Shown here: piece after piece, positions 1 through 57,844 of the stretch
How the letters are laid out: each line of letters opens with the position of its first letter
How positions within the stretch are numbered: position 1 is the first letter of the stretch
NCBI GenBank assembly: GCA_963704305.1
Contig: OY969888.1
Location: 3,875,010-3,939,009, forward strand
DNA from: an uncultured Bacteroidota bacterium
GTDB taxonomy: Bacteria; Bacteroidota; Ignavibacteria; Kryptoniales; JAKASW01
Reading direction: 5' to 3'
Length of the DNA: 64,000 bases
Notes under the pieces: generated by a model
Told to the model about the DNA's origin: nothing
Seen by the model: only the letters and a program-made list of their open reading frames with translations
Databases searched by the model: none
Program-made: the position numbers and the translations under genes

Positions 1-1103
1 AGTTCGGCATACCTCTGTCTGATCTCGTCCGTAACGCGGCTCTCTGTTAAAATATTCTTGACGATGGCAGCGGCCCGCTGCGGCTTAAAATCGTGCTGCA
101 CGAGCTCTTCGACTATCTTCTTCTGCGCGACGATGTTTACAAGTGAGATCGAATTAAGCCTCACAAGGAGTCTTCCCAGAAAATAGGTCAGTGCGCTCGC
201 CTTGTAAACTACCAGCATCGGAAGATTGTGCAAGGCAGCTTCGAGCGTAGCTGTTCCGCTGGTCACGATACCGGCATCCGCAGAACTCATCAGCAATTCG
301 ACATTTCTCGTGAGACCTGCAGGCACACCCGATTCACGAACAATATCCAGATACACCGCATCGTCAATCCCCGGCGCACATCCGATGACAGCCTTCAAAT
401 CAACCTGTTCTCCTTTTAATTTTTCTTTCAACGCTGCAATGGATTTCATCATGGTCGGGAGAATTCGAATTATCTCCTGCAACCGACTTCCCGGCAACAA
501 GGCAAGGAGTTTCGATTGCCCGTTAGCAGAATACTTCGCGCGCAGTCCTCGTATCTCAGTTTCGCTCGGCGTCGCCATCTCGTCAAGCAAAGGATGACCG
601 ACAAAGTGTGCTTCAACTCCCTCCATCCTATACATCTCTTCTTCAAACTTGAAGATGGTCATCATAAGGTCGACGCAAAGCCGAATCTTCTTGACTCGCC
701 TTCTTCCCCACGCCCATATTTGAGGGCTAATGAAGTAAGCCACCTTAACGCCGTTCTTTCTTGCAAGCTCAGCAAAACGAAGATTGAAACCGGGATAATC
801 TACCAGAATGACCGCCGACATCTTCTTCGTCCTGATAGTCCGCAACAGGTCGCTTCTCACCTTCATCAAAAAAGGAAGCTTAGACACAATTTCTGAAAAA
901 CCCATCACAGACATTTCGTTAACATGATGGACCAGTTCAACTCCCGCCGCTTTCATCCTATCTCCGCCGATGCCGACTACACAAAGGTCGTCTTCCCCCG
1001 TGCCAGAATTTAGTCTGGAAGCTTTTCGCATGCTCTCAACCAAACGAGCAGCATGTTTGTCACCGGAAGTCTCGCCGGCAATTATAAGATAGTTCCTACT
1101 CAC
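1..1103 (-). CDS. lpxB: lipid-A-disaccharide synthase (C-terminus cut by window edge)
   Basis: Not in the ORF track because it runs off the window. My translation from GTG at 1103 reads VSRNYLIIAGETSGDKHAARLVESM...VILVDYPGFNLRFA...SGTATLEAAL, the typical LpxB (GT19) N-terminal and core motifs. The start forms a GTGA overlap with the upstream gene stop. Confidence 0.85.
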   Translation of the reverse strand, partial: MSRNYLIIAGETSGDKHAARLVESMRKASRLNSGTGEDDLCVVGIGGDRMKAAGVELVHHVNEMSVMGFSEIVSKLPFLMKVRSDLLRTIRTKKMSAVILVDYPGFNLRFAELARKNGVKVAYFISPQIWAWGRRRVKKIRLCVDLMMTIFKFEEEMYRMEGVEAHFVGHPLLDEMATPSETEIRGLRAKYSANGQSKLLALLPGSRLQEIIRILPTMMKSIAALKEKLKGEQVDLKAVIGCAPGIDDAVYLDIVRESGVPAGLTRNVELLMSSADAGIVTSGTATLEAALHNLPMLVVYKASALTYFLGRLLVRLNSISLVNIVAQKKIVEELVQHDFKPQRAAAIVKNILTESRVTDEIRQRYAE

Positions 1104-1699
1104 ACAATGCCCTTGAATATGAACATGACAAACAAAAGGACGGTCAATGAAGTCAAGGCGATCAGTGATGAACGCTCGGAGCGAATTGCTCTTGGAAAAT
1201 TTCTGGCGAGTTTACCGTGACCATCATACCTAGATAATCGAGGAGCAAACCGGCGAACATTTGACGAGTACTCCTTCCAATCCGGAAATGTTCCGGATAA
1301 ATATTCTTCTTCAATGCTCACGATAGCTTCGTACTGGAAAATGAAATATGCAAGCGCCACCAATTGCAGATAAGGCATGAGCGCATCCGACATTATGCCG
1401 ACACCGAGATATAACAATATGTTTCCCAGGTATAACGGGTTTCTCACATAGGCATAAGGCCCGCTCGTCACAAGTTGAGTTCCGCCTACTGTCCCGGTCG
1501 TCCGGGTCTCGCTTCCAGCATAAGACACTCCCCAGAACCTGATGAGCTCACCGATCAGTGCAACTAGAAAGCCGATTACCAGGGATGATATCGTCGGAGA
1601 GGCAAAGAGCAGCATCATGAGCAGGAACGGTATCGGAGTGTAACTCCTGTAGGTAAACAGGCGGTGCTTCCAGCCACTATTCGAAAATGTTTCCGTCAT
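1100..1699 (-). CDS. membrane methyltransferase, isoprenylcysteine carboxyl / phospholipid methyltransferase family
   Basis: 199 aa, multi-pass hydrophobic, with the C-terminal motif GPYAYVRNPLYLGNILLYLG typical of the ICMT/PEMT family. Overlaps both neighbouring genes, so it is operonic. Confidence 0.7.
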   Translation of the reverse strand: MTETFSNSGWKHRLFTYRSYTPIPFLLMMLLFASPTISSLVIGFLVALIGELIRFWGVSYAGSETRTTGTVGGTQLVTSGPYAYVRNPLYLGNILLYLGVGIMSDALMPYLQLVALAYFIFQYEAIVSIEEEYLSGTFPDWKEYSSNVRRFAPRLSRYDGHGKLARNFPRAIRSERSSLIALTSLTVLLFVMFIFKGIV

Positions 1700-2424
1700 T
1701 CCGCCAGATAAGCCTCCCTCCGCTTCAACTCGGCGCGATGACGCTTGCGGAAATTTCTTGCGTCAAATATCTTTTTGAATTTGACAAGCACCTCTCCAAA
1801 GTTGTCGAATGGAAAATACGTAATATTGCTCTCCTCGCAGTACTTCAACAGTTCGTCTTTCGCGAAGACAATGTCTGCATACTGGACCGCGCACCGATCG
1901 GAAAAACCATTGCCGATGTAAACTATCAAATCCTCGCTGCCAGTCATCGTCAAGATCTGATGACCTTTGCAGTTGGCACATTTGGAACAATCTGACTCAT
2001 ACGGAAACTCAATCTTGATACCATTCTGATCGAATTGTGCGCGATTGGAAAAGTAAGAGACATCTGGCAATCCATTCACGGCAAAGATTTTCTTAATGTA
2101 GAAATCAAGGCCATCGCTCAAAACGATTACGCCAACTCCATTCTCTTTGCAGAAAGAGAGGAAAGTTTTGAATGACGAATCGATCTCAAAACTCCCGACA
2201 TATGACAAGGCCTGCTCCTCACTCACCTTGACACGTTCAGCTTCTATCAACGTCAATTCGCTTCCAGATATTTCGCCGTTCTTCCACTTAGCAACGGCCC
2301 TGATGGCTTCTTCCTCGTCTCCAAATGTTCTGAAGAAAGCATTACCGACATCTTGTTTTGTTATGGTGCCATCGAAATCGACAAAGATTTTCGGAAACAG
2401 GTTCGTCATTGCTTCGAAACCCAA
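1696..2424 (-). CDS. HAD-IB phosphatase, MtnX-like
   Basis: Has the FVDFDGTIT nucleophile motif, a Cys-rich insert (CSKCANCKG) and YIGNGFSDRCAVQYADIVFAKD. The layout resembles B. subtilis MtnX-type HAD phosphatases. Confidence 0.65.
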   Translation of the reverse strand: MGFEAMTNLFPKIFVDFDGTITKQDVGNAFFRTFGDEEEAIRAVAKWKNGEISGSELTLIEAERVKVSEEQALSYVGSFEIDSSFKTFLSFCKENGVGVIVLSDGLDFYIKKIFAVNGLPDVSYFSNRAQFDQNGIKIEFPYESDCSKCANCKGHQILTMTGSEDLIVYIGNGFSDRCAVQYADIVFAKDELLKYCEESNITYFPFDNFGEVLVKFKKIFDARNFRKRHRAELKRREAYLAE

Positions 2425-5400
2425 TCGTCGACAAACCGGACCGCCACAACTTTTGACACTCCCTGTTCCTCCATCGTTACACCGTAAAGCGTGTCGGCGG
2501 CTTCCATGGTTCGTTTGTTGTGAGTGATCACGATGAACTGAGTGTCCGTCGAAAACTTCCTGAGCATCCTCACATAGTTATCGGTATTGTTATCGTCGAG
2601 AGGCCCATCCACCTCGTCGAGTATACAGAAAGGACTCGGCTTGACCAGGTAAATGGCAAAAAGAAGTGCGATTGCAGTCAGAGTTTTTTCTCCAGCTGAG
2701 AGCAAGTCGATTGACTGAGGGCGCTTTCCCGCAGGCTTCGCCATTATCTCAATCCTTGCTTCCAGCGGGTCGATATTCTGCTCGAGTCTAAGTTCGGCTT
2801 CTCCGCCGTCAAACAAGCTTTGGAAGGTTGCCTTAAAATTCTCGGAAATCTGATCAAACGTTTCCAGAAACTTCTGATGCGCGGTGTGATTGATCTCGTC
2901 AATTGTCGTTGTCAGAGTCTTCTCGGCCTCGAACAAATCTCCTCGTTGCGCCACGAGAAAATCCAATCGCTGCTTTTCTTCACGATATTCCGAGAACGCG
3001 ACAAGGTTTACCGGACCGAAAGACTCAACTCGTCCTCTGAGATAGTTTACTCGTTCACGCGCGGTGCCGGGATCGAAGTCGGCCGGTATTTTCATGGACT
3101 CGGCAGTCTGTTGCGAAATATCAAGATTAAATTCTTCCTGTGCCCGCTCGACAAGAGCTTTCGCGTGTGCATCGAGTTCACTGATCTTCAGGCTCACCTG
3201 ATGAACAGATTCTACAGCAGATTCATGGCTCGCGCGCGCATCCTGAAGTTTCTTTTCTTCTGCTTCCTCGGAGTCCTTCTTAGCAGACAACTTCGAGCTA
3301 AGCTCGCTAGTCTGACTATCCAGCGATTCGATCTCCGCTTTCACGTTGACCTTACGATCCTCAAGCTCACCCAGCCTTTGTTCGCATCCTTCAATCGACA
3401 CCTTGGTCGCCCGCTCTTCCTCTTCCGACCTGGATATCCCGTCGAGATTCGTGCGCATCTGTTCCTGTGACGATTCAATTTCCCTTTTAAGGAAGTTGAG
3501 CTTGTTCACACATTCTATGTGCTGAGCCTGCATCTCACGCAAACGTTCGTTCTTTTTCCTGTATTCTTCCTCAATCGATTTCAACTCATCCAGGGAAACC
3601 TGATATTCATTTTCGGACGTATTCTTCACCGAACTCAGCTCTGTCAGTAATGTTTCTATTGAATCGAGCTCGCTTTGAGCTTCGGACATCTCTGATTCTA
3701 ATCTCGAAACTCGAGTCTTTGTGTCGGCGATCTGCGACTGAATACTCTGCAGGTTGCGCTCGTTCTCCACGCTTGACTGTTCAATGCGTGCCAGCTGGAG
3801 TTCCAGATTTCTGAGAGTCTCGTTCCCGGATTTGATTGGGAGTAGATCCATCTCCGACTGAAGCGCCCCGACAAATTCTTCCAGCCGGGATAATTCTCTT
3901 GTTAGGTCCGAGTTCTCGTTTTTCAGTTCCTCCAGCTGCCTCAGCTTTCCTACCTTGCCGCCTTCAGTTCGGCGCGTGCTTCCGCCGCGGATTACTCCTC
4001 TACTTGAAAAGACATCGCCTGCAAAGCTTACACAGACCAGCGAAGGATCTTCATGCAATATGCTTTCCGCCTCAGAAAAATTGTCGACAACCGCGACATT
4101 CTCGAAGAAATATCTTCCGATCCCTTCGTGTTCCCTCGACATCTGCACGTGCTCAATTAGTCTCCTGTAATTCAGGCTGGCACGGCTCGGGAACGTCGGG
4201 GCGGCGATCCTGTCAACACAGACGAATGTTACTTTTCCCAAATCACGGCTCTTCAGGGCATCGATTGCACTCAACGCGGTGTGTTCGTCTGGCGCGACAA
4301 GAAAATTGGATGCCTCTCCGAGTATCGACTCCGCCGCAATCCTGTAATTCTGCTCGACATAAAATACATCGCTGAGAACTTCCAGTTTAGGCAGACCGCT
4401 GACTTCACCGCGCACGAGTACTTTTGCACCGTCCGGCAAGCCTTCGAGGTGTTCGACGAGCCCGTTAAGAAAATCTATCCTTGCTTCATTCGCCTGAAGA
4501 AGATTCCGAGTTTTTTGGGCTTCTAACTTTCTCTGCTCGATCTCAGCGAAAAGTCCCTCGCGATGCGTTTCCAGGTCGGTGAGCTTTGCTTTTTCTGATT
4601 CGATTTCTCTTGCAATCTTTTCCTTCTCTAACTTCGAAGTTTCTATTCGAGACAAAAGCCGCGCCTTATCGGCTTCCAGTTGATTCGTTCTGACCGAAAG
4701 CTCTTCGTTGTGGGACTGCACTCTTGCGAGTCTGGCGTGCGATCTTTCCCTTTCGTTCTGTTTGAGGGCAAGATCGTTCAAAACATGGATCAGATGCTCG
4801 TGGTTCAGATTTGATTTCTCGCGAGCTGCAAAGAACCTTTCCTCGAATTTGCTGAAGCTCTCCTGCTCCTCCGCGAGCGTACCTGACAGACTCTCCTCCT
4901 GACTTCCGGTCTCGAGTAGACTCAGTTTCAATTCATCGATCTGGGAAGCGAGCAATTCGTTCTTGCTCGTGAGATCTACTGCCCGCCTTTGCAGGGACAA
5001 AATGTTGTCACTGAGACCTCTCTTCCGCTCAACCAGCACAGCGATTTCTTCCTCAATGGAATGAAGATCATTCTGCTTGTCTGAACGTTGAAGTCTGAAT
5101 TTCGACAGACTTCTTTCCAGGTCTCCTATCTCGGAGCGCATTAATCGCAGAAGCTCCTCCTGGTGGGAGAGAACATTCAAAGAATCTGCTTTCGCACCTT
5201 CGTTCAACGAAAGACTTTCCTTCAGCGGTGCAACCTTAGCAAGTACTGATCCATACTCCGAGAACAGATACTGCCGTTCGAGGGAGCCAAGCTCATCAAC
5301 ATACTTCTTGTAAAGTTCAGCGCGCTTCGCCTGGCGCTCGAGCGAGCTTACCTTCTTCTCAATTTCCGAGATGAGATCGTTGACGCGGAGCAGATCACGC

Positions 5401-5954
5401 TGCACATCGTCAAGCTTGCCGAGTGCCGCTCTCCTCCTGGCTTTATATTTTGTAACGCCGGATGCCTCCTCGAACATTTTTCTGCGCTCATCAGTATTTT
5501 CTCGCAGTATGTCTTCCACCATTCTGAGTTCAATGACGGAATATGCCGTAGCAGCCATGCCGGAATCCATCAGCATATCCTGGATGTCTTTCAGACGACA
5601 CTGATTCCTGTTGATGAAGAATTCGCTCTCGCCTGACCGAAACACCCGACGAGTTATGCTTACTTCTGCATAATCCACGGGGAGGAGGTGCTTATCATTC
5701 TTTATGGTGATTGTGACCTCGGCCATTCCGAGCGGCTTGCGGTCCTTCGAACCGTTGAAGATAACGTTCTCCATCGAATCGCTCCTGAGCATACTGGAGC
5801 GCTGTTCACCGAGAACCCATCTGATTGAATCGAGCACATTGGTTTTCCCGCAACCGTTTGGTCCGACAACAGAAGTTATTCCGCCATTGAAGGTCATTTC
5901 GGTTTTCGTGGCAAAAGATTTGAAGCCAAGAAGCTCTAATTTTGAAAGAAACAT
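2406..5954 (-). CDS. smc: chromosome segregation protein SMC
   Basis: 1182 aa. Contains an N-terminal Walker A (GPNGCGKTN), long coiled coils, a hinge, the C-terminal signature LSAGEKTLTAIALLFA and Walker B FCILDEVD. Confidence 0.95.
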   Translation of the reverse strand: MFLSKLELLGFKSFATKTEMTFNGGITSVVGPNGCGKTNVLDSIRWVLGEQRSSMLRSDSMENVIFNGSKDRKPLGMAEVTITIKNDKHLLPVDYAEVSITRRVFRSGESEFFINRNQCRLKDIQDMLMDSGMAATAYSVIELRMVEDILRENTDERRKMFEEASGVTKYKARRRAALGKLDDVQRDLLRVNDLISEIEKKVSSLERQAKRAELYKKYVDELGSLERQYLFSEYGSVLAKVAPLKESLSLNEGAKADSLNVLSHQEELLRLMRSEIGDLERSLSKFRLQRSDKQNDLHSIEEEIAVLVERKRGLSDNILSLQRRAVDLTSKNELLASQIDELKLSLLETGSQEESLSGTLAEEQESFSKFEERFFAAREKSNLNHEHLIHVLNDLALKQNERERSHARLARVQSHNEELSVRTNQLEADKARLLSRIETSKLEKEKIAREIESEKAKLTDLETHREGLFAEIEQRKLEAQKTRNLLQANEARIDFLNGLVEHLEGLPDGAKVLVRGEVSGLPKLEVLSDVFYVEQNYRIAAESILGEASNFLVAPDEHTALSAIDALKSRDLGKVTFVCVDRIAAPTFPSRASLNYRRLIEHVQMSREHEGIGRYFFENVAVVDNFSEAESILHEDPSLVCVSFAGDVFSSRGVIRGGSTRRTEGGKVGKLRQLEELKNENSDLTRELSRLEEFVGALQSEMDLLPIKSGNETLRNLELQLARIEQSSVENERNLQSIQSQIADTKTRVSRLESEMSEAQSELDSIETLLTELSSVKNTSENEYQVSLDELKSIEEEYRKKNERLREMQAQHIECVNKLNFLKREIESSQEQMRTNLDGISRSEEEERATKVSIEGCEQRLGELEDRKVNVKAEIESLDSQTSELSSKLSAKKDSEEAEEKKLQDARASHESAVESVHQVSLKISELDAHAKALVERAQEEFNLDISQQTAESMKIPADFDPGTARERVNYLRGRVESFGPVNLVAFSEYREEKQRLDFLVAQRGDLFEAEKTLTTTIDEINHTAHQKFLETFDQISENFKATFQSLFDGGEAELRLEQNIDPLEARIEIMAKPAGKRPQSIDLLSAGEKTLTAIALLFAIYLVKPSPFCILDEVDGPLDDNNTDNYVRMLRKFSTDTQFIVITHNKRTMEAADTLYGVTMEEQGVSKVVAVRFVDDWVSKQ

Positions 5955-8474
5955 TTATGTGAACTTATTCTCGACGATGAATTTGTAGAAGAACTTTGTG
6001 TAGGGTATGACTCCGCCGGTTCCGTTGTAATAAAATGTGACGAGCAGGATGAGTCCGACCAGAATCAATGTACCGATGAGTCCGACCCTCACAGTCGGCA
6101 GATCGTAAATTACGCCTACGCCGTGGAACAGTCTAAACAAACTTAATAGTAGAAGCGCCGCGAGGATTATTGACGCCGCCCAGACAAACTTGGGGTCACC
6201 AAGCAATCTAAAAAGTATCATGTCAGCCAGAATCAAAACGGCCATCGGCAGCATGGACCATGTAGCGACGGTGAACGCACTTATCAGCTGCAACCTTATC
6301 TTCGCCGTGTAGGAAAGGAGTTTGATAACAAATGTAATGATGACAATCAGAACCATAAAAAAGATGGTGAATGCAAGTATAAACTCCGCGGGATGCCAGA
6401 TGAGGTAATCTATCTTGATCTTCAAGAAATCGCTCGGCACAAGCAATCCCAATAGCCTATCGAATACGTAGTCGTTGCGGTAAGCATAAAATAAACTAGA
6501 CAGGTAAATCGCGATCCCGGCAGACACGAGAAGCAATACTGTCGACGTTTGGAAAACCGAGATCATTCGCTGATCTCTCACATCAGCAAAGAAGTTATAC
6601 GGTCTGAAGATGGCGCGCGTCGCGCTCTCCCTGAACCACCTTCGGCTATAGTGAAGGTAAGTAATTAGAACAAGAAGGAGAGTGGACAGTATAACGTAAA
6701 TGATCGGAGGAGTCTCGACAAAATCTCCGATCGGGAGGGAAGGCAAGGTCTCGTCGTTGAACAGGGCTCGCACAGCTGCAAACGCAGGACGCTTCTCTCG
6801 CCAGTAACTTACCAGCCCGAAGGTGTACAGGTAAGGATGGCCATTGGGCATTAGATGAGGGACTGCACCCTGCCAATCGGCATAACTATTTACAGAAATC
6901 CCTGCCGCATTCCCGCTCTCGATAGCCTCGTATGCATCGACGAGAAACCGCGCCTGATGCTCAAGGGAGAGAGGGTCCGCATAACCGTTATGGTTGGCAA
7001 TCTGAGTCTGTGTACCGACAGACGAAACCCAGAACGAGAGGTTCGGATAAAGTTCCGAAATCCTGCTAAGGAATCCCTTCATCTTCCTCTCAGAATTAAA
7101 AGGCGTCAGGTCCAATCCTACAAAGTCTGCGTCCGTCGGAGAGCCGTCAGCTAATCCCGTCAATGGCGTGTAGTAGACAAGCTTGTCCGTTTCGCTGTGA
7201 ACAAGCTTAACTATCGATGAGATATATTCTCTTGTCGTACTGGACGCCGGGTCGATGTCGCTGCCGGCGGAAATGGCGACTACGGACGGATGGTAGCAGG
7301 TCTGTTGAATAACTTCGCTCAAATAACTCAACAAGGATCCCCTGTATTGGCTTGACCCTAACACCGAAGAGGGGGCGTCGACTAACGGAATCTCCTCAAA
7401 AGCCATCAGACCAAATCTGTCACATAGATCAAGAAAACGCTGGGACGGCGGATAATTTACAACTCGTATCGCATTTGCGCCGAGTGTCTTTATCACTGCT
7501 ATGTCTTTTTCAAGCTCAACCTCGTCAACTGCCGCATCCACTTTAGGATAATCGGCAACATAGTTGACGCTTTTCACAAAAATTTGTTGGCCGTTCAAAT
7601 AGAACTTTCCACCGGACAATTGGAAATTCCTGAAGCCTATATTCTCGGAATACTCATCTACGATAGATGATCCTTTATACAAATAGAAATCCAGCTCGTA
7701 CACATCCGGCTTGGCAGGTGACCACAGATTCGGGTTCTGAACCTGGAGCGAGAGATGGACCTTCGTGTTATGGTTCTGCGCAAGGCTAAAAACATTATCC
7801 GCGGACTTCGCTACAACTTTTCCGGACATTTTATCAACCAGCTCAGCGTGAGCAGTCAAAGAAACTGACGTTGCCGCCGAATCGATCCCGTATCGCGAGT
7901 AATCCGAAGCGTACACGATGATGTCGCTTTCAACATCAGCCGCGCTGTAATTTGAATTTGTCGTAATCTGAACGGAAGGATCATCGACGTAAATAGGTGG
8001 CTTCATTTCAAGGTAGACATTTCTGAACAGACCATCATAGCATTTCTGCTGGAAGGCAAGCTGTTTCAAGGGAATGGTAGAGATCGGGCTTGATTCATTA
8101 TTACTGATTATACGTATCAAGTTCTCGTTTCCCGGTTGCAGAAGTCTGTCAGGTATCCTCACATCAATTTGAGAGTATGCTCCATTATGAATTGCGACAT
8201 ACTCGTTGTTGATCCTTATCTCGGTGGATATTCCGCCGTTGCCTAATACGAGGCTGAAAATGTTCTTGTCTACAAAATCCGTTGGAATGAACACCCGTTT
8301 CTCAAACATAACCGTTCCGTCATAGTCAAATACCGACGGGACGTTAATTGACCGCCATGTCTTTCCGTTATCTGACGAGCACCGCCACTTACCGTCCAGG
8401 TCAATCCTGCTTCGCGTCGCCGTGAGCTGATCAATCTTAATTCCGGATTGTGCGAGACTCGGTCTGCGATCCAT
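5955..8474 (-). CDS. GH2-like (sugar-binding jelly-roll plus TIM-barrel) domain fused to a C-terminal multi-pass membrane domain; catalytic Glu residues apparently absent
   Basis: 839 aa. The N-terminal ~590 aa align by eye to the glycoside hydrolase family 2 architecture (IRVVNYPPSQRFLDLCDRFGLMAFEEIPL, CYHPSVVAISAGSD). From ~aa 590 there are at least 6 hydrophobic helices. No N-terminal signal peptide. The stop codon abuts the smc start codon. Confidence 0.65.
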   Translation of the reverse strand: MDRRPSLAQSGIKIDQLTATRSRIDLDGKWRCSSDNGKTWRSINVPSVFDYDGTVMFEKRVFIPTDFVDKNIFSLVLGNGGISTEIRINNEYVAIHNGAYSQIDVRIPDRLLQPGNENLIRIISNNESSPISTIPLKQLAFQQKCYDGLFRNVYLEMKPPIYVDDPSVQITTNSNYSAADVESDIIVYASDYSRYGIDSAATSVSLTAHAELVDKMSGKVVAKSADNVFSLAQNHNTKVHLSLQVQNPNLWSPAKPDVYELDFYLYKGSSIVDEYSENIGFRNFQLSGGKFYLNGQQIFVKSVNYVADYPKVDAAVDEVELEKDIAVIKTLGANAIRVVNYPPSQRFLDLCDRFGLMAFEEIPLVDAPSSVLGSSQYRGSLLSYLSEVIQQTCYHPSVVAISAGSDIDPASSTTREYISSIVKLVHSETDKLVYYTPLTGLADGSPTDADFVGLDLTPFNSERKMKGFLSRISELYPNLSFWVSSVGTQTQIANHNGYADPLSLEHQARFLVDAYEAIESGNAAGISVNSYADWQGAVPHLMPNGHPYLYTFGLVSYWREKRPAFAAVRALFNDETLPSLPIGDFVETPPIIYVILSTLLLVLITYLHYSRRWFRESATRAIFRPYNFFADVRDQRMISVFQTSTVLLLVSAGIAIYLSSLFYAYRNDYVFDRLLGLLVPSDFLKIKIDYLIWHPAEFILAFTIFFMVLIVIITFVIKLLSYTAKIRLQLISAFTVATWSMLPMAVLILADMILFRLLGDPKFVWAASIILAALLLLSLFRLFHGVGVIYDLPTVRVGLIGTLILVGLILLVTFYYNGTGGVIPYTKFFYKFIVENKFT

Positions 8475-8649
8475 TCTCGTCAGACTGGGCTGATAGACGA
8501 GAAGGGACGACAGAAATAAGGATTAAGCAGGACAGAACGACTGCTCTTGGAATGTTAAAAAGGGGCATTTATCGAGACTTGATTCCCATTGTTGATAAAT
8601 TTAACAAAACCGCGGGGGCAATGCAATTAACGAGTCTAGCACATCGCTG

Positions 8650-9528
8650 CTAACTTTTGTTTTTTAACAGGGTCAGGGATTTCCTCGTTGCAGTTTCGCC
8701 AGCCCTGATCATCTCATCCAGTTTATCGAAATTAGCCCAGTTGGTCCTCCCGACCTTCGGCCGAATAACAACATCCGATTCTGAAAGGAGGGCTCGATTG
8801 AAGTGGTAATTAGTTATCTCATTCGCGCGCAGGGCGACATCGAATGCAGTTGAGGGCTCTCCATCGCGCCTCAATTCCATCGACACATCGACCGCAATTA
8901 TTTTTCCGCTGAATGTCTTACGCGCAGCGGTGACCGGCACCGTGCTGGTTGTACTGCCGTCGATTAGAATTGATGTTCCGCTCTTGAGAGGCTCCACGAT
9001 TCCAGGAATCAAAGAACTTGCAATCACGGCAGTAAGCACCCGCCCATTCCTGAAAACAATTTCCCTTCCGCTAACAAGATCTGTTGAAACGCAGACAAAC
9101 GGTATCTTCAGATCTTTGAATTGAATATCCGGGATCAAAAAGCTGAGTGCGTCCTTCAGGATATCGTGTGTGAAGATACCCCTCTTTGATGCTGCCTTGA
9201 TGTAGATGAATTTCTGTCCCAGCCTGTCCAATATTTTCTTGGGTTCCTGGTAAGTGCTCGGATTTTCGGACAGGATGAAGAAAGTCTTTCCAAATTTCTC
9301 ATGGAACTGGCTCGCGAGGAATTTCCTGAACAGTTCCTCAACCTCCAGCGCATTCCCGCAGTGTGCAAACATCGCACCTACTATCGCACCCATGCTTGTT
9401 CCGACGATCCCTTTGATTCCGATCCTCTCTCTCTGGAGAACCTTCAAGACACCCACGTGAGCGAGGCCGCGCGCGCCGCCGCCGCCAAGTGCCAACACAA
9501 ACTCTGACTGTTTCTTTCTCAAGATCAT
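8650..9528 (-). CDS. patatin-like phospholipase
   Basis: Oxyanion motif GGGGARGLAHVGVL, nucleophile elbow GTSMGA, and a DGS-type catalytic Asp motif (LIDGSTT). Confidence 0.85.
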   Translation of the reverse strand: MILRKKQSEFVLALGGGGARGLAHVGVLKVLQRERIGIKGIVGTSMGAIVGAMFAHCGNALEVEELFRKFLASQFHEKFGKTFFILSENPSTYQEPKKILDRLGQKFIYIKAASKRGIFTHDILKDALSFLIPDIQFKDLKIPFVCVSTDLVSGREIVFRNGRVLTAVIASSLIPGIVEPLKSGTSILIDGSTTSTVPVTAARKTFSGKIIAVDVSMELRRDGEPSTAFDVALRANEITNYHFNRALLSESDVVIRPKVGRTNWANFDKLDEMIRAGETATRKSLTLLKNKS

Positions 9529-9633
9529 CGTTCGCCGCTGATCATTTCTTTTATTCTTCTACTCGGTTGAAACAAAAAAGTTGCTTTGAGATTGACAGGT
9601 ACGTTTTGGTCCCCGTCTTCCCTATTTGACGTT

Positions 9634-10605: not shown

Positions 10606-10622
10606 GAAACACCTGTAAACAT

Positions 10623-26682: not shown

Positions 26683-26775
26683 GGAGAGGTGGCCGAGTGG
26701 CTGAAGGCAACGGTTTGCTAAACCGTCATACTCTGTAAAGGGGTATCGAGGGTTCGAATCCCTCCCTCTCCGCCA
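26683..26775 (+). tRNA. tRNA-Ser (anticodon GCU), class II with long variable arm, CCA encoded
   Basis: Acceptor GGAGAGG/CCTCTCC. Anticodon stem ACGGT/ACCGT with loop TTGCTAA. Long variable arm, T-arm GAGGG-TTCGAAT-CCCTC, discriminator G, then CCA. Confidence 0.95.
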
Positions 26776-35340: not shown

Positions 35341-36084
35341 TTACAATCGTAAACTTTCCGCAAGCAGATCGGCGATGTGCATCGTCTTGGCATGCATCCT
35401 GTGTTTGCGCAGATAACCTTCAATGTTCATCAGGCAGCTCGAGTCGACACCGACGCAAAACTCCGCGCCGCTCTCTTCAACGTAGCGGCATTTGCGTTCG
35501 ACCATCGCGACCGACAGGTCTTCGAACTTATACGAGAACGTTCCACCAAACCCACAGCAGGTGTCTGGCTTCTCCATCTCGACGAACTCGATATCCTTGA
35601 TTCCGTTGATGAGCCGACGCGGCTGATCGTCAACACCGAGTACGCGAAGAGGATGACATGAATCATGGTACGTAACTCTGTGCCTGAATTCACCGCCGAC
35701 GTTTTCAATGTGCAACACATCGACTAAGAATTCGGAAAACTCGAACACTCTCCCCTCGAGCCGAGTCAATGCCGGCTTTAATTCGTCGCGTATATCGAGA
35801 TCGCGGTAGTATTCTTTCACAAACGAAACGCATGAGCCGGACGGTGCAACTACATACTCCTTGTCTTCAAACAATCGGATGAATTGCTCCGCTACAGGAA
35901 CGACTTCATTTCTGTAGCCTGAATTGAATGCCGGCTGGCCGCAGCAGGTCTGGTTCTCTACGTATTCCACTTCGACGCCGAGATGCCTGAGCACTTTCAC
36001 CATCGATATTCCGCTCTGCGGAAAGAGATGTTCGGTCAGACATGGAATGAAGAGAGCTACTTTCATCCTATTTCGGAGAGTCAC
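35341..36084 (-). CDS. lutA: lactate utilisation protein A ((Fe-S) oxidoreductase, CCG domains)
   Basis: 247 aa with duplicated CCG motifs, [13 protein letters not shown] and DTCCGFGG. Confidence 0.9.
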
Positions 36085-37893
36085 TGCTTATTGTAAAGTG
36101 GCCCGAAATTCTTGCAAGCTCTGAAGTCCGCGCCCTCGAGTTCTTCAGTTCCGAACGCGTTCCATGCGCTCGGCCTGTAAATCCTTTCCTGCGAAACGTT
36201 GTGCATGTTGACAGGTATCCTCAACATCGAAGCGAGCGTGATCAACTTGTCTCCGATATGTCCGTAGCTGATGGCACCGTGGTTCGCGCCCCAATTAGCC
36301 ATGACGGAATAAACATCCTTGAATGCGCCGCTTCCTGTGAGAATCGGAGCGAACCAGGTTGTGGGCCACGTCGGGTTCGTCCTGCGGTCCAGTATTCGAT
36401 TGACATCGCCGGGAAGGTCGACGGTATATCCTTCGGCGATCTGCAGGACAGGACCGAATCCCTTGACAAGATTCACTCGGCTCATCGTAACCGGCATTTC
36501 ACCTTCGGTGAGGAACTGTGAAGAGAAACCGCCGCCGCGGAAATATTCTCTTATCGCCGGGCACCATCGAGTCGCCTCCAAACATGCCGACACATCTTGC
36601 GAGGTGATTTCCCAGAACGGCTTCATTACCGGTTTACTCTTCGACCGCTGTTTGCCGGTTCCATCGAGAGTCGTGGAGCCGGAATTGATCAGATGAAGAA
36701 TTCCTCCGGCAGCTCTTCCCTTCAACGTTTTCCCACTCACTCTTTTCACCGCGGCGGGGCTCCAATATGTCCGGAACGTCTGAAAAAATCTGTGCGGTGT
36801 TTGTGAGAAGATGACCGAAGAGCATAGCAGTTCCGTTGAGACTGTCATTCTCGGTCGCCATGACGAACGGCTCCCGTATGCCGTTCCAGTCAAACGAAGA
36901 ATTAAGAATGGCTTCGAGGAAATCTCCGTTGGGGAAATGGTCGGTCCATTGCCGCTGTCCCTGGAATCCTGCGACGATCGCGTTATGACCGAGAGCTTCC
37001 TCACCGAAACCGAGTTCCACAAGTTTTGGATTGCCGACCATCAGATCACGCGCGATGATCGCCATCTTGACAACAGTTTCCCACTCATGTTCCTTTCGTT
37101 CACGAGAAGATTTTTCCGTGTTGAGGTCATCCCCTTCTTTGCAATGCTTCTTGGTCCATGCCAGCGCTTTATGATATTCTTCTTCATCGTAGATCTTTTC
37201 ATCGATGCGCCTGGCAAGCTCGGACATATCGACATATTCATTTCGCATTCCCAGGTAATCGTAGAAAAAATTGGAGTCAACAACCGAGCCCGCGATTCCC
37301 ATCGAGACGGAACCGATGGAGAGATAGGACTTCCCCTTCATTTCTGCGACAGCTAATCCGGCTTTCGCAAACCGGAGAAGTTTCTCCCTTACATCAACAG
37401 GAACTGTAGTGTCGTCCGCCTCCTGGACGTCTCTTCCATAAATACCGAACGTGGGCAAACCCTTTTGCGTGTATCCCGCAAGCGCCGCAGCAAGATACAC
37501 GGCGCCTGGGCGCTCCGTTCCGTTGAATCCCCACACTGCTTTCGGGACGAGCGGGTCGGAGTCCATCACTTCAGTTCCATAACACCAGCAAGGCGTCACT
37601 GTCAGCGAAACACCCACACCTTCGCGAGCAAAAAGCTCCGCGCATTCGGCAGCCTCGGCCGCCCGGCCTATTGTTGTCCGGGAAATGACACTTTCGACAG
37701 GCAATCCATTCGAATGGCGCAAGTTCTCGGTCAATAATTTCGCAGCCGCTCTCGCCATCGACATCGTCTGATTCTCGAGAGATTCCCGCACACCTTTCAT
37801 TCTTCCGTCAATGACAGGTCGAATACCTATCTTCGGCATGCTGCCGCGGAGCCGGTTCGTAGGTGGATTCATCTCAAAGACATCTTTGCTCAT
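36081..37893 (-). pseudogene. fucI: L-fucose isomerase split by an apparent 1-nt insertion (or sequencing error)
   Basis: Two overlapping track ORFs in different frames are together colinear with E. coli FucI. Frame A ends the homology at ...[11 protein letters not shown] and frame B resumes at [12 protein letters not shown]. The junction is GTT-C-CGG (extra C; gg at 36773-36774 on the plus strand). Span is 1813 nt, i.e. 3n+1. ATG at 37893 follows GGAG and the ackA stop. Confidence 0.9.
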
Positions 37894-37894
37894 C

Positions 37895-39109
37895 TCAGTC
37901 TCCTGACGTTTCTGACAATTGTAATTCTTCAATTACTTTTTTGGTTTCTCTCGCAACGACAAGCTCTTCGTTCGTCTCAAGAACAAGTGCCGAAATCTTC
38001 GAATCGGTTGCCGAAATAATCTGTTCGTTGCCGCGGTTCTTTATATTATCTAATTTCATTCCGAGGAATGCAAGCGACTTCAGCACATCTTCGCGCAGCT
38101 CGGAATCCCGTTGTCCTATCCCGCCGGTAAATGTGATTGCATCCAGGCCTTCCATGATCACGATGAATTCACCGATGTAGCGCTTTACATCGTAGATAAA
38201 CTTGTTGCGGGCAAGAAGCGCTCGCTTGTTTCCACCTCTGATTGCTTCTTTGATGTCCCGCATATCCGCAGATATTCCGGAGAGGCCGGCGAGACCGCCG
38301 TTCTTCGTACATTCCTTCAATGCATCGTCAAGGGATATGTTCTTCTTCTTCATGATGTAAGGAAACACAAATGGGTCGATGTCGCCGACACGCGTTCCCT
38401 GGATCAGTCCGGATTGCGGAGTAAATCCCATCGACGTGTCGACCGCCACGCCATTTTTGAATGCACACAGCGACGAAGAGCCTCCGAGATGACATGTGAT
38501 TACTTTATGATTGTCCCGTGGGAGACCAAGAATCTCGACGGTCTTGCCGGTGACGTAACGATGCGATGAGCCATGATAACCGTACTTGACGACGCCGCAT
38601 CTTTCGAACCACTCGTAAGGGGTTCCGTAAACTTTTGCATAATCCGGTGCGTTGATATGGAACCCAGGTTCAAAGACCCCCACTAACTTCGTATCGGGAA
38701 GGAGTTTTTTGAACATGTAGATGGCCGTCAGATATGGTGGGTTGTGCGCGGGAGCTAGGTCGCTGTAATCTTCCATTGCCTGCAAGACATCGTCGGTCAG
38801 CAGAACAGACCCATTCCTGTCTCCCGCCTGAATTGTCTTGAAGCCGATGCCGTCAATTTCATCAAGGCTCTCGAGAAGATCGAATTTCTTGTCGACAAGA
38901 ACCCGGAGAGCATGTTCAACGGCTTCACGATGCGAAGGGATATTCATCTCATCCGAAAATACTGTCTCTTCGCCGATCCGGTATGCGACAGCTGCCTTTT
39001 CACTGCCGACGCGTTCGGTATAACCGCGCGCTATCATCGTCTCGTCGGTCATATCGAGCAGCTGAAACTTAAAGCTGGTCGAACCGATATTGCAGACGAT
39101 GATCTTCAT
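37895..39109 (-). CDS. ackA: acetate/propionate-type acyl kinase
   Basis: [17 protein letters not shown]..., HLGGSSS, and [11 protein letters not shown]. Confidence 0.9.
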
Positions 39110-53421: not shown

Positions 53422-55044
53422 TTACCTGCTTATTGATTCTTGTCCGAAATCTCTGAATTTGCCCGCGAGGTGACCCTCCAATTCCTCAAGCGTGAATGGT
53501 TTATGAAGAATTCCCATGCCTCCCTGACTGAGAATCTCCTGCACTTTTCCCTCGGCGCTATATCCGGTCGCAACCAGAATCGGGAGATCAGGTTTCAGTT
53601 TATGGATCTCAAAGAAAGTCTGATTCCCGTCCATGCCGGGCATTATCATGTCCAAGATGACTACATCGATTCTTTGATTCTGTTCGATGGCTCTTAGTGC
53701 CCGTTCCCCGTTTTCAACTGCGACGACATCAAAACCGAGAATTCTCAAAAACTCCGTGAGCAATTCTCTCACTTGAAGTTCATCGTCAACTACGAGACAC
53801 ACTTTGCCTTCGACAATTTTTCTGAACTCTCCGGTTTCCCGCTGATAATCTTCCGGTGCTTTTTCTAATGACGAAGGCAGATAGACTTCGAAAGTTGTTC
53901 CATTTCCAACGTCGCTGTAGACGGCAACATCGCCGCCATGGTTCTTCACGATTCCGTACACCACGGAAAGTCCGAGGCCGGTACCTTCCCCTTTCGGCTT
54001 GGTAGTGAAGAACGGCTCAAAGATGCGAGACAGGTTCTCTTTCGGAATTCCATGGCCGGTATCGGAGACTTCCACAACGACATAGTCTTTCCGGTCAAGA
54101 CTGAGGTTGAGCTGTGCGACGTTCTTGGCCAGCTGGAATCGAGTTGAGATTTTCAACTTGCCTCCATTGCGCATCGCATCTCGTGCATTGACCACAAGGT
54201 TCATTATCACTTGTGAGAGCTGCGATTCGTCTCCTTCCACTGGTGGGAGATCGCTATCGAGATTCAGCGATACCTCAACATTCTTCTCAATCATTTTTTT
54301 CGTCATCTCTGCCGTTTCAACACAAATGCTGTTGAGGTCGACGTTTTTCACCAACGTCTTCCCGGCCCGCGCGAATCCTAGGAGCTGCTTCGTTAGTTCG
54401 GCAGCCCGCCTTGCGGACTTCTCCACCGTCGACGCATAACTCGACAGCTTTTCATTCTGTTTCAATTCAAGCCTAAGGAGGCTCGCATATCCAAGCATGA
54501 CTCCCAACATGTTGTTGAAGTCATGTGCAACTCCACCAGCAAGAGTGCCTAGGCTTTCCATCTTCTGAGATTGTCTCAACTGTTCTTCAAGTTGACGCGT
54601 CTCGATCATCTTCATTTCGCGATCGTATTCCGAAGCAAGTCTCTGACGAATGATCCGCAATATGCTAGTCTGTGAACGGCTGATACTCTGCGCTCTCTTG
54701 CTGCCGAGCAAAATCACCCCCACGCGCTTCTTCGCGACTTCAATTTCAGAGGGATAAAAAAACTTCCAGGAATCAACACTCCTCCCGCTTTCTCCATAGA
54801 TCCCGGCAGAAGCAGGCAGAAATCTGCTGAGGAAAACGATGCCACTGCTGTCGTTAGCGAGTAGCTCAGTGATCCGTTCAACTTTTGCGGTATGTATAAC
54901 GACTTCGCCGGCCTTGACAACGTAAGCAGCACTTGAATCCTCCCGCTCATCGTAGTCTCCTATGTACACAAACTCGGCGTTAAAGACGTTCTGAAAGGAG
55001 CGAGGCATAATCTTCAAACAGCTCTCCACCCGATCGCTTGACAC
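53422..55044 (-). CDS. hybrid sensor histidine kinase / response regulator (GAF-like remnant, HisKA, HATPase_c, REC)
   Basis: H-box GGVAHDFNNML, N-box NLVVNARDAM, DTGHGI, GTGLGLS. The C-terminal REC domain has VVDDE...ILDMIMPGMDG...KPF. The start is uncertain (see findings). Confidence 0.85.
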   Translation of the reverse strand: MSSDRVESCLKIMPRSFQNVFNAEFVYIGDYDEREDSSAAYVVKAGEVVIHTAKVERITELLANDSSGIVFLSRFLPASAGIYGESGRSVDSWKFFYPSEIEVAKKRVGVILLGSKRAQSISRSQTSILRIIRQRLASEYDREMKMIETRQLEEQLRQSQKMESLGTLAGGVAHDFNNMLGVMLGYASLLRLELKQNEKLSSYASTVEKSARRAAELTKQLLGFARAGKTLVKNVDLNSICVETAEMTKKMIEKNVEVSLNLDSDLPPVEGDESQLSQVIMNLVVNARDAMRNGGKLKISTRFQLAKNVAQLNLSLDRKDYVVVEVSDTGHGIPKENLSRIFEPFFTTKPKGEGTGLGLSVVYGIVKNHGGDVAVYSDVGNGTTFEVYLPSSLEKAPEDYQRETGEFRKIVEGKVCLVVDDELQVRELLTEFLRILGFDVVAVENGERALRAIEQNQRIDVVILDMIMPGMDGNQTFFEIHKLKPDLPILVATGYSAEGKVQEILSQGGMGILHKPFTLEELEGHLAGKFRDFGQESISR

Positions 55045-57844
55045 CGACTTCGTACGCTTTCTCTAACCAATCGTTTGTGCGCACGATGTCTGAGACATCA
55101 TTCAGAAATAGAATCCGTTTGTCAGTTCCGTGGTCAATGCCAATTGCACTCGAAACGACATCAAAATAATGACATAGCCCATCTATCGTTGCAGTTACTC
55201 TTGAAGTTTTCCCTCCGTCTCCGACCAGAAGCACTTTGACGAGCGGTCCGAACGAACTTTCGTCGAAGAAATCGAAAATCTTCCTGCCAATCGACAGCCT
55301 GTTCTTCAAACCGAAGGTCAAGGAGAATCTCAAATTGGAGAACTCAATTTTTCCGCTGCCGTCGGTGATTACGATAACATCGCTGCTTGAGTCGGTTATT
55401 GTGCGATATCGCGACTCAGATTCTTTCAGCTCGGCAAGTATTCGTTCTTTCCTGATTGCAAGTGCCGCTTGATGGGCAATGCCTTCCAGAAAGTGCAGCT
55501 GCTCACGAGTAAATGCACCTTTCTTCTGGAAACTGTCCAGCGAAACAACTCCCAAGGCTTCATTATCAACAAGGAGAGGAGCTGCAATCGCTGATTTCGC
55601 CTTCCCAGCTTCTGGCAACTCAGACATGACACTGAGCGAAGGGTAAGAAGTAGCGTCTTCGATAATTGCCGGAGTGCATGTCGTAAAGACTCTTCCACCC
55701 CAACCCTCACCAGGGGCTATTGCAAATTTCTCCTTCATTTCTTTTGAATATCCGATTGAGGCTGTCACCCTTAATCTATTCTCCGTCTTGCTGTAGATAA
55801 GAACGACCCCGGCATCGGCTTCGGGAACAGCATCCCTCGCCGAGGTTATCAGCATCTCCAGAAGTTCGTCAAGGCTTCCGCTGTGCATTAACGAAGCGCT
55901 AATGTCGAGAAGCTTCTGCAGCTGCTGGGTTTTCAATTTCAAGTTTTCATCAGCGATTCGATCATCCGTCACGTCGCGTGCCACGCCGAGAAGTCCTGTG
56001 ACCTTACCATCTTCGAGGATCGTGGCAACGTTATATTCCGTGATGCCGATCTCTCCTGATTTTCTCAGAAACCTGAACTCATATCTGCTCGGGACATCGC
56101 CGCCGCTCATTCGCTTCGCATAGTAGCCATTGACCTTCGGCAAATCCTCGGGGTAAACCAGTATGTCAAATTCATGTCCCAGGACTTCCTCCGACTTGTA
56201 ACCCGTGATGTCTTCGAATTTCGGATTCACGTACAATATCAGCCGATCTGTTCCTATGAGCACAACAGGATCATTGACATTCTGAAGGACAAGGCGATAG
56301 AGACTCTCGCTTCGTGACAGGTCATCGTACAGACGCGAATTGTAGAGGGCCGTTGCCAGTTGCGACGTAAAAATCTCAAGTGCGTAAAGATCGGGTTCTT
56401 TGAACGGCACGTTCTTCAGGCGCGTCAGTGCAATCATTCCGAGAAGCTGTCCGCGATAAGTGATTGGAGCGGCCAACAAGTGTTCGAGCGCAGGTTTCTC
56501 AGAAGGATATATCGACAGCGGATTCAGATGAGCGTTGTTCTCCAAAACAGGCTTGACTTCTGCAGCCGCTCTTCCGATTAATCCTTTGCCTATTGGAACC
56601 TCGACAGCAATAAAGTCGGGCCTCTTTCTCTTTCTCAGGACTGCTTTTTCCTCGCGGAGAAGCTGTAGCCTTTCATCATAGAGAAATAGGCGAACTACAT
56701 CGGATGGAATCAGCTCGTCCAATTTCTTGTGAATAATATCGAACAGTTTTCCAAGCTCAAGATTTTCATGCAGCTGGAAGCTGGTTTCATGGATGGCCGC
56801 CAGTTTCTGGTTCTGAATTATCTGTTGCTTGACACTCTCGTTGTATTCAAAGAGGAGTGAACTTATGTGGACAATGGCATCGAACGCTTCGAGCTCCTCA
56901 TCGGTGAAACTTTCCCTGACATTTCCGACAAGCATTCCCCCGAGCAATTCATCTTTGTTGTAGAAAGGTGCGTTGTATATCGACTTGACCCCGGCGAATT
57001 TCTGAATCAGTCTGGCAGCTTGCGATGGCATCGTTGTTCCAAAGACATCGGCGAAATCGGTCCCTACCCATGGTTTTCTCTCAGCGGTGTATTGATCGAC
57101 GACGCAGTTCTGCGGTTCGAAGGGAAAGACAAATGAATCCAGCGAGATCCCGAAAAATTTCTGGGCCAACTTGACGAGTTTACCTTGCGGATAGATGCCG
57201 TGAACCGTGAAACCGTTTTCACGCTGCAAGAATCGCTGGAGACTTACAACTTTCATGTCAAGCTTCTTTACGACTTGCTCCGCCATCTCCTGCATGACAG
57301 AATGCAGATCGTTTGTTTCAACCATCTTACGGACGAGAGACGCAAGAATCTCGAGCTGGTATGACTTCAAAGTTGATTGATGTCTGGCATCTATCGCCTC
57401 CCGCACGAAGCTCGAATTAACGATGTTCTTCATCAGAATTCTTGGGAACATCTTCAAGACGACACCCGTCAGTGGAAAATAAGCGTCCGCTCCCATGCGT
57501 GTCGCTTCCGTATTTATTCTGTCAGCGAAGTCCCTTGAAATCAAAACGGTTGGAAGAAACGGGTCTACTTCCTTCGCGGTTTTCAGAAGCGCCGGCACAT
57601 CTCCTATGGAAAGGTCGTAGTCAACAATCAGAGCATGATATTTTCCTGAGATCAGCTTCTTGCTGAGTCCCACGGAGCTTGATAGAACCTCAACCGAAAA
57701 CCCCATCTTTGATGACTCCAGAATCCGGCTCAATTGCTCGCGAAGGTCCATCGAGTCTTCTAGGCAGGAGTATATTCGTTTCTTGAAATGAAGTCTCGGT
57801 CGTCGGCATAGCTGACTTCTATTATACGAAAAATCAGGATACAC
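54980..57844 (-). CDS. multi-domain sensor protein (REC-like, GAF, GAF, PAS, GAF, PAS) with no output domain of its own
   Basis: Domains read from sequence include the PAS core YRLVLQNVNDPVVLIGTDRLILYVNPKFEDITGY and GAF cores (IGKGLIGRAAAE...LLAAPI and GEGWGGRVF...AIAAPL). Ends 65 nt inside the next ORF, in a different frame. Confidence 0.75.
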   Translation of the reverse strand: MYPDFSYNRSQLCRRPRLHFKKRIYSCLEDSMDLREQLSRILESSKMGFSVEVLSSSVGLSKKLISGKYHALIVDYDLSIGDVPALLKTAKEVDPFLPTVLISRDFADRINTEATRMGADAYFPLTGVVLKMFPRILMKNIVNSSFVREAIDARHQSTLKSYQLEILASLVRKMVETNDLHSVMQEMAEQVVKKLDMKVVSLQRFLQRENGFTVHGIYPQGKLVKLAQKFFGISLDSFVFPFEPQNCVVDQYTAERKPWVGTDFADVFGTTMPSQAARLIQKFAGVKSIYNAPFYNKDELLGGMLVGNVRESFTDEELEAFDAIVHISSLLFEYNESVKQQIIQNQKLAAIHETSFQLHENLELGKLFDIIHKKLDELIPSDVVRLFLYDERLQLLREEKAVLRKRKRPDFIAVEVPIGKGLIGRAAAEVKPVLENNAHLNPLSIYPSEKPALEHLLAAPITYRGQLLGMIALTRLKNVPFKEPDLYALEIFTSQLATALYNSRLYDDLSRSESLYRLVLQNVNDPVVLIGTDRLILYVNPKFEDITGYKSEEVLGHEFDILVYPEDLPKVNGYYAKRMSGGDVPSRYEFRFLRKSGEIGITEYNVATILEDGKVTGLLGVARDVTDDRIADENLKLKTQQLQKLLDISASLMHSGSLDELLEMLITSARDAVPEADAGVVLIYSKTENRLRVTASIGYSKEMKEKFAIAPGEGWGGRVFTTCTPAIIEDATSYPSLSVMSELPEAGKAKSAIAAPLLVDNEALGVVSLDSFQKKGAFTREQLHFLEGIAHQAALAIRKERILAELKESESRYRTITDSSSDVIVITDGSGKIEFSNLRFSLTFGLKNRLSIGRKIFDFFDESSFGPLVKVLLVGDGGKTSRVTATIDGLCHYFDVVSSAIGIDHGTDKRILFLNDVSDIVRTNDWLEKAYEVGVKRSGGELFEDYASLLSERL

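Follow-up and report, generated by a model that had tools for sequence, protein, structure and literature searches.

Eukaryotic 4F2hc/CD98hc, rBAT and Klotho are membrane-anchored proteins whose glycosidase-fold ectodomains (GH13 or GH1) lack one or both catalytic residues, and they serve as binding or chaperone subunits and not as enzymes. The protein described here belongs to a bacterial family that is an uncharacterised variant of this known theme, pseudo-glycosidase ectodomains on membrane proteins. It is encoded on the minus strand of a 64,000-nucleotide stretch of DNA from an uncultured Bacteroidota bacterium (assembly GCA_963704305.1, contig OY969888.1, positions 3,875,010 to 3,939,009 of the forward strand; hereafter the window), where it is annotated as an open reading frame (ORF) of 839 aa at 5955..8474. 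The protein joins a module with the fold of glycoside hydrolase family 2 (GH2) to a C-terminal membrane domain that resembles Yip1. 4F2hc, rBAT and Klotho differ from it in being eukaryotic, in belonging to other glycoside hydrolase families and in having single-pass anchors, and they show no sequence relation to it.

The enzymes to which the module is related are the GH2 beta-glucuronidases and beta-galactosidases (PDB 8dhe, 3cmg/5z1a, 3fn9, 6ncy and 4jkm; LacZ and GUS of E. coli), with which it has the three-domain fold in common and a sequence homology that reaches E 1e-30 when the single protein is used and E 1e-60 with the family profile. They differ from the window protein, in which the acid/base residue, the nucleophile, the His, the Tyr motif and the Trp of the active site have been replaced or deleted and a six-helix domain has been added at the C-terminus. 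Orthologs from Candidatus Kryptonium (loci L022, L023 and L025) have the same layout as the window protein but carry the full canonical catalytic set, of which the window protein keeps none.

A second point of comparison is PbgA/YejM (LapC) of Enterobacteria, a multi-pass inner-membrane protein bearing a periplasmic hydrolase fold without properly placed catalytic residues, which senses lipopolysaccharide and regulates lipid A synthesis (PMC7773988). The window protein resembles it as a predicted periplasm-facing dead enzyme with a multi-pass anchor and a linkage to lipid A genes. However, the fold of PbgA/YejM is of the arylsulfatase type and lies C-terminal to five helices, whereas the GH2 fold of the window protein lies N-terminal to six. 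The two proteins are not homologous (Pfam, NCBIfam and PDB searches of the window protein return GH2 and Yip1 only), and their likeness is a functional analogy, which on the side of the window protein draws on its gene linkage to an LmtA-like gene, lpxB and lpxK.

For the membrane domain, the described counterparts are the Yip1 proteins, i.e., the eukaryotic YIPF proteins and bacterial YknW, which have five helices after a conserved cytosolic segment ending in hydrophobic-hydrophobic-x-Pro, a layout also predicted for the family studied here. In YIPF proteins the segment before the first helix is cytosolic and the C-terminus is lumenal (PMC6682643), and YknW modulates how a membrane transporter complex is put together (PMC4887032). 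The window protein differs from these in scoring below the Pfam threshold and in that the domain is preceded by an additional helix and by an ectodomain of 590 residues. A literature search for the Yip1 domain together with glycoside hydrolases, and for GH2 pseudoenzymes, found nothing relevant.

A GH2 fold with an apparently dismantled active site

Pfam search of the window protein placed the Glyco_hydro_2_C TIM barrel at residues 285-426 (the first half of the profile only) and the Glyco_hydro_2 immunoglobulin-like domain at residues 199-282, with a weak match to Glyco_hydro_2_N. The family alignment served as input for an AlphaFold model with a mean pLDDT of 85.8. The top Foldseek matches of this model in the PDB were GH2 beta-glucuronidases and beta-galactosidases, aligned over ~600 columns with E ~1e-40 and a TM of 0.76 on the target. 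In the window protein, the jelly-roll, the immunoglobulin-like domain and the (beta/alpha)8 barrel follow one another in that order, as in GH2 enzymes. Pfam, the model and Foldseek agree in this with a preliminary description of the locus, which had assigned the GH2 layout to the N-terminal ~590 aa. No NCBIfam GH2 model came near its cut-off for the window protein.

Enzymes of clan GH-A bear their two carboxylates at barrel strands 4 and 7. The catalytic positions of the window protein were placed by phmmer against all PDB chains and by a profile of 32 family members. In the phmmer alignments, 'HPSVVAISAGSDIDP' pairs with 'HPSIYVWGLHNEVYQ' of 3fn9 and 'FWVSSVG' pairs with 'LMLTEYG'; the alignment with LacZ stops one residue past the position matching E461. 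The family profile puts 'g-s-n' under 'ANE' and 's-s-v-G' under 'SEFG' or 'TEYG' (6xxw, 4jkm, 8dhe), with high posterior probabilities. In the AlphaFold model, residues 405-406 are located at the C-terminal end of strand 398-407 and residue 485 at the end of strand 481-486, and these are barrel strands 4 and 7. The preliminary description, aligning by eye, had put S405-D406 under the acid/base Asn-Glu pair and S485 under the nucleophile. Its alignment was correct by all three lines of evidence, and a proper alignment places Glu at neither catalytic position.

The supporting residues have gone as well. In the family alignment with two GH2 enzyme fragments, the His of RxxHYP (RTSHYP) corresponds to N340 and the tyrosine motif NRYYGWY falls into a gap or deletion, while the Trp of VWNF corresponds to N529. 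What an active GH2 enzyme would need, i.e., the acid/base Glu, the nucleophile Glu and the supporting His, Tyr and Trp, is missing from the window protein. The former sugar pocket varies among the family members, and the structural Asp of FADF is retained in 157 of 168 members. Judged by alignment and model, the GH2-like module is one without a working GH2 active site, and the site is more thoroughly dismantled than had been stated before.

Loss of catalytic residues across the family

The state of the two catalytic Glu residues was determined in 238 distinct full-length members (neither Glu in 165, the nucleophile only in 37, the acid/base only in 33, both in 3). The three members with both residues came with the added GTDB loci, the first 168 sequences having given none, and they are encoded in metagenome-assembled genomes (MAGs) of Ca. 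Kryptonium/Kryptonia (L022, L023 and L025). They read RLxHYP, WGIGNE, ITEYG and FVW, a residue-for-residue match to active GH2 enzymes such as 6ncy. With 34-35% identity to the window protein, they share its membrane domain, its cytoplasmic RPYNFFADVRDQ motif and its smc-HAD-PEMT-lpxB neighbourhood; a signal peptide is present in the two of them that have a complete N-terminus. A different state was found in L026, L037, L040, L042, L044 and other Ignavibacteria loci (~9001-11470), which read WGIG-D-E at the acid/base position and have Arg or Lys in place of the nucleophile. Such an Asp-Glu pair on strand 4 without the enzyme nucleophile, present in many orthologs, is reminiscent of substrate-assisted hexosaminidases.

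Regain of five canonical residues is implausible, and we therefore conclude that the family descends from an active GH2 enzyme that had this architecture already, anchored in the membrane and facing the periplasm. Different lineages apparently lost the acid/base residue and the nucleophile in separate events, and the clade of the window protein has neither. Since some lineages keep only one Glu and others only the other, we infer at least two independent routes of inactivation.

Extent of the family, conservation and selection

When 1.84 billion representative proteins were searched with a membrane-domain profile, 586 clusters at 50% identity were found, 534 of them at E <=1e-10. Most of the best 150 clusters are 820-890 aa long with the membrane domain at the C-terminus, and the short ones resemble fragments. 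In contigs from one genome per GTDB species, 547 stretches encode a relative, a number that may include ordinary GH2 genes; the best 80 of the 547 all belong to the family and come from MAGs with the labels Kryptoniota, Ignavibacteriota or Bacteroidota. Identical architecture was found in 78 full-length GTDB species loci. The family spans Kryptonia and Ignavibacteria. A word-indexed search with the membrane-domain alignment returned seven fragments only and no new architectures. No NCBIfam model describes the family, and its members are named 'beta-galactosidase' or 'GH2 TIM barrel-domain containing protein' in the source records.

When 15-residue stretches were ranked by conservation, residues 620-634 (RAIFRPYNFFADVRD), within the predicted cytoplasmic loop, came first, and the mean conservation of this loop was 0.70, compared with 0.31-0.44 in the other domains of the mature protein. 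The next in rank was a motif of the ectodomain that is specific to the family (Table 1). In the membrane domain, Trp693, Pro695, Trp739, Pro743, Arg781 and Asp791 each have a weighted frequency of >=0.90. Against an 86%-identical ortholog, approximate dN/dS values of 0.037 (ectodomain), 0.029 (barrel) and 0.032 (membrane domain) were obtained. Because dN/dS is as low as ~0.03-0.04, the dead domain appears to be maintained by strong purifying selection.

Reading frame, signal peptide and predicted topology

The annotated ORF begins at ATG 8474. Upstream of this codon, ATG 8568 opens an ORF in a different frame; it reads MPLFNIPRAVVLSCLILISVVPSRLSAQSDENGSQTE and encodes MPLFNIPRAVVLSCLILISVVPSRLSA followed, after the predicted cleavage site, by QSDENGSQTE. 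The two frames are separated by a single extra base (Table 1). Contig L088 (3,997 bp), from an independent assembly of run ERR10755942, aligns to the window by blastn over 3,998 columns without a mismatch and with one gap, and carries an 870-aa protein with the leader (P0270), which is also a member of the 90%-identity cluster of the window protein. The same 1-nt difference separates the window from four relatives in a DNA alignment, and the orthologs are ~30 aa longer than the window ORF and begin with a comparable leader. As L088 is otherwise identical, and as the L-fucose isomerase gene (fucI) of the window is likewise split by a frame disruption, the extra base most likely stems from an error in the assembly consensus; it may also be a genuine mutation of very recent date. 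The corrected product of 870 aa, a predicted inner-membrane protein, consists, in order, of a signal peptide, the GH2-like ectodomain, one membrane helix and the five-helix Yip1-like domain.

In the corrected frame only, the N-terminus has the composition of a Sec-type leader for signal peptidase I (MPLFNIPR, then AVVLSCLILISVV, then PSRLSA before the Gln), and the cleavage site was taken from this n/h/c layout and from the Ala-Gln junction that recurs in orthologs. By a simple heuristic, 156 of 168 full-length members have a hydrophobic stretch within their first 50 residues, and the 12 exceptions resemble miscalled starts. A lipoprotein signal was considered and rejected, as the Cys of VLSC is not conserved in orthologs. 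The earlier statement that the protein has no signal peptide is right for the 839-aa ORF as assembled but fails for the corrected frame, in which the leader runs from ATG 8568.

Six long hydrophobic helices were found in the models at residues 592-820, which bears out the polytopic C-terminal membrane domain seen before. The weak Pfam Yip1 match spans residues 622-813 and starts inside the loop at 611-639; across the family, Pfam Yip1 matches 6 of 11 members at E up to 0.1 (best E 4e-9). The family mean of Lys plus Arg is 7.1 in this loop, against 3.0, 2.0, 0.3 and 0.5 in the later loops and 1.7 in the C-terminal tail. The prediction thus gives the topology of Yip1, with five helices, a cytosolic N-terminus and a short C-terminus outside. 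From the signal peptide in most orthologs, the positive-inside loop and the orientation of Yip1, the GH2-like module is predicted to be periplasmic and the Arg-rich loop cytoplasmic. The cytoplasmic placement of the module in the preliminary description does not hold, because the leader was lost to a 1-nt insertion.

A 24-nt motif ending in the true start codon (ATGGGAnTnnnnnCTCnATAnATG; Table 1) could be a translation-initiation or regulatory element. In a scan for sigma-70 promoters and terminators around the gene, sites were no more numerous than in shuffled sequence, and an Rfam scan found no RNA element near the gene.

Elsewhere in the window, fucI at 36081-37932 (minus strand) is split into two overlapping parts in different frames, the N1 and N2 domains at 36634..37932 and the C domain at 36081..37022. 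The junction lies near 36700-36760, beside A4 runs, and is the second frame-disrupting indel in the window; it suggests consensus errors in the assembly. At 53422-57844 (minus strand), an ORF with response regulator, PAS and GAF domains (54980..57844) overlaps an ORF with HisKA, HATPase and receiver domains (53422..55044) by 65 nt. This pair may be one hybrid sensor kinase split by an indel, or two genes with a miscalled GTG start.

Gene neighbourhood and features of the locus

The stop codon of the gene (TAA, 5955-5957) is directly followed by the ATG of smc at 5954, and the genes for a HAD phosphatase, a PEMT/ICMT-like methyltransferase and LpxB come next (Table 1), as in the preliminary description. 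This order, on one strand, was found in all fetched loci with enough downstream DNA except L006; in locus L086 the PEMT-like match is absent. In the loci of relatives that reach that far, lpxK follows lpxB. The linkage to smc is conserved in related genomes, with a median gap of 10 nt between the stop codon and the smc start in 81 loci (0 or -1 in 23 of the 81, and <=50 nt in 76). Conservation of the upstream genes, which encode SHMT, TatC, a polyprenyl synthase and a patatin, is confined to the clade with more than 50% identity. The best NCBIfam match of the methyltransferase, far under the cut-off, is LmtA, the lipid A 1-phosphate O-methyltransferase of Leptospira. Its gene immediately precedes lpxB in the sampled relatives with sufficient downstream DNA, L086 excepted, which hints at lipid A methylation in the lineage. 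Going by gene order, the lipid A genes in the string would fit a periplasm-facing envelope protein at least as well as chromosome segregation.

Table 1. Coordinates of the features of the GH2-Yip1 gene and its neighbours in the window, and of three orthologs with an intact site in their own loci.
Feature	Position	Strand	Remarks
Whole gene as it should read	5955..8568	-	ATG 8568 to stop 5955-5957; 870 codons once the extra base 8454 is removed
Conserved 24-nt motif ATGGGAnTnnnnnCTCnATAnATG ending in the true start codon	8566..8589	-	Kept in 12 close-clade loci with protein identities as low as 66%
Predicted Sec-type signal peptide MPLFNIPRAVVLSCLILISVVPSRLSA	8488..8568	-	27 codons; predicted cleavage before Gln28
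Extra C (minus strand)	8454..8454	-	Causes the frameshift that cuts the signal-peptide codons off from the 839-aa ORF; blastn against contig L088
GH2 N-terminal jelly-roll (sugar-binding-type) domain	7995..8453	-	Residues 8-160 (839-aa numbering, as below)
GH2 immunoglobulin-like domain	7629..7994	-	Residues 161-282
GH2 TIM-barrel domain, dismantled active site	6750..7628	-	Residues 283-575
S405-D406 at the GH2 Asn-Glu acid/base position	7257..7262	-	End of barrel strand 4
S485 at the GH2 nucleophile Glu position	7020..7022	-	End of barrel strand 7
Family-specific ectodomain motif NHNGYADPLSLEHQA	6951..6995	-	Residues 494-508, in the loop and helix that follow strand 7; ranks second in conservation among 15-residue stretches
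Membrane helix 1	6645..6701	-	Residues 592-610; predicted crossing from periplasm to cytoplasm
Predicted cytoplasmic juxtamembrane loop RRWFRESATRAIFRPYNFFADVRDQRMIS	6558..6644	-	Residues 611-639; most conserved segment of the protein
Five helices of the Yip1-like domain	6015..6557	-	Residues 640-820
smc	2406..5954	-	1,182 aa; TIGR02168 956 bits, above the equivalog cut-off of 567
HAD-IB (MtnX-like) phosphatase	1696..2424	-	Part of the conserved string
PEMT/ICMT-like membrane methyltransferase	1100..1699	-	Best NCBIfam match LmtA, 62.6 bits against a cut-off of 325
lpxB, lipid A disaccharide synthase	1..1091	-	Runs off the window end
Ca. Kryptonium orthologs keeping all five GH2 active-site residues	L022 8140-10593; L023 1925-4390; L025 2379-4847

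Two other features of the window were recorded. A 430-aa protein encoded at 12893-14185 (minus strand) has no Pfam match, and its similarity to BamG, a beta-barrel-assembly family of NCBIfam, scores 146.8 bits (cut-off 250). A tRNA-Ser(GCT) gene at 26683-26775 (plus strand) is followed by ~2 kb with few long ORFs (to ~29000), possibly an integration site or another non-coding stretch.

Proposed role and alternative explanations

Taken as a whole, the protein is, in a reading that we hold with moderate confidence, an exported, non-catalytic GH2-like module on a Yip1-like membrane anchor with a binding or scaffold role in envelope biology. Such a role would be conserved without a need for hydrolysis. 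The ectodomain would most likely bind, or simply scaffold, an envelope glycan or glycolipid, and the membrane domain could relay its state to a partner that meets the conserved face on the cytoplasmic side, in a working mode like that of PbgA/YejM and, in animals, of 4F2hc and Klotho. A role in the envelope or in lipid A metabolism seems more likely than one with SMC, and from the gene order it is possible that the cytoplasmic face acts in SMC function.

Several points weigh against this reading. Its functional part draws on analogy and gene order, and the ligand, the partner and the phenotype are putative. The variability of the sugar pocket argues against conserved binding at the former -1 subsite, and the role of the ectodomain may be purely structural. 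Gene order that is conserved within one lineage can reflect inheritance and not a common function, and a distant member (P0059, 27% identity) has hrcA-grpE-dnaJ downstream instead of smc. The membrane domain of the window protein scores 24.1 bits with Pfam Yip1 (PF04893), below the gathering threshold of 28.6, and a Foldseek search with a separate model of this domain found nothing in the PDB with an E-value better than 0.7. The signal peptide and the topology come from simple heuristics, and dS to the closest ortholog is ~2, near saturation, which makes the dN/dS values approximate.

A more specific possibility, to which we give only a small chance, is that the protein is a transmembrane sensor or regulator, whose dead periplasmic domain would read an envelope glycan or glycolipid and whose invariant, Arg-rich Yip1 face in the cytoplasm would control a co-expressed machine, either the late lipid A enzymes or SMC. 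The other alternatives are less probable. The frameshift could be real and the gene a pseudogene in this genome, as the extra base is outside any homopolymer run and the 839-aa product is the database entry for the 4.5-Mb contig. We consider this unlikely, since the remaining 3,997 bp are identical to the intact copy from an independent assembly, the frame has no further lesions, and the frameshift in fucI suggests consensus errors in the same window. In the preliminary description, the dead GH2 fold was a cytoplasmic, membrane-tethered binding module coupled to SMC and chromosome segregation. The missing leader of the annotated ORF speaks for the cytoplasmic location. The stop codon adjoining the smc ATG, the tight smc linkage kept in 81 loci and the position of the most conserved part in the predicted cytoplasmic loop, which could contact a cytoplasmic partner, would suit such a coupling. 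However, the absence of the leader goes back to a 1-nt assembly difference, most orthologs have signal peptides, and the positive-inside rule and the Yip1 orientation (PMC6682643) put the GH2 module outside, which leaves this reading very improbable; in a weaker version, which is possible, it would be the cytoplasmic loop and not the GH2 fold that communicates with SMC.

The protein might still be a glycosidase or transglycosylase that uses other catalytic residues, such as D406 as acid/base. D406 does place a carboxylate where the acid/base would be, strong purifying selection acts on the domain, the family-specific motif 494-508 adjoins the old active site, and three orthologs appear fully active. 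But D406 is Asn in the nearest relatives and variable across the family, and it was rejected as a replacement acid/base on the evidence of these relatives. The His, the Asn-Glu pair, the Tyr motif, the nucleophile and the Trp are all lost in the clade of the window protein, the invariant D324, D450 and D533 sit in motifs common to ordinary GH2 enzymes, and a new invariant pair of acids was not seen in the family. We therefore see hardly any room for catalysis by other residues in the window protein. That the GH2-membrane fusion is a chimeric join or an artefact of the assembly can practically be ruled out. No supporting point was found, and the fusion, far from being unique to the window assembly, recurs in related genomes, with the 586 clusters at 50% identity, the length and layout shared by most of the best 150 matches and the identical architecture of the 78 full-length GTDB species loci.

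Implications

If the sensor reading is true in its lipid A form, a circuit like that of PbgA/YejM would have been invented independently in Kryptonia and Ignavibacteria; in its SMC form, it would link envelope growth to chromosome organisation. The change of the predicted location of the module from cytoplasm to periplasm illustrates that an assembly error of one base can invert a topology prediction. The family is one of the few clues to the role of the prokaryotic Yip1 domain. With active, half-dead and fully dead orthologs in one architecture and at one genomic position, it offers a natural series from enzyme to pseudoenzyme, which allows a direct comparison for the study of the non-catalytic function. 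When its members are counted among the glycosidases, the capacity for sugar degradation predicted from Kryptonia and Ignavibacteria genomes comes out too high.

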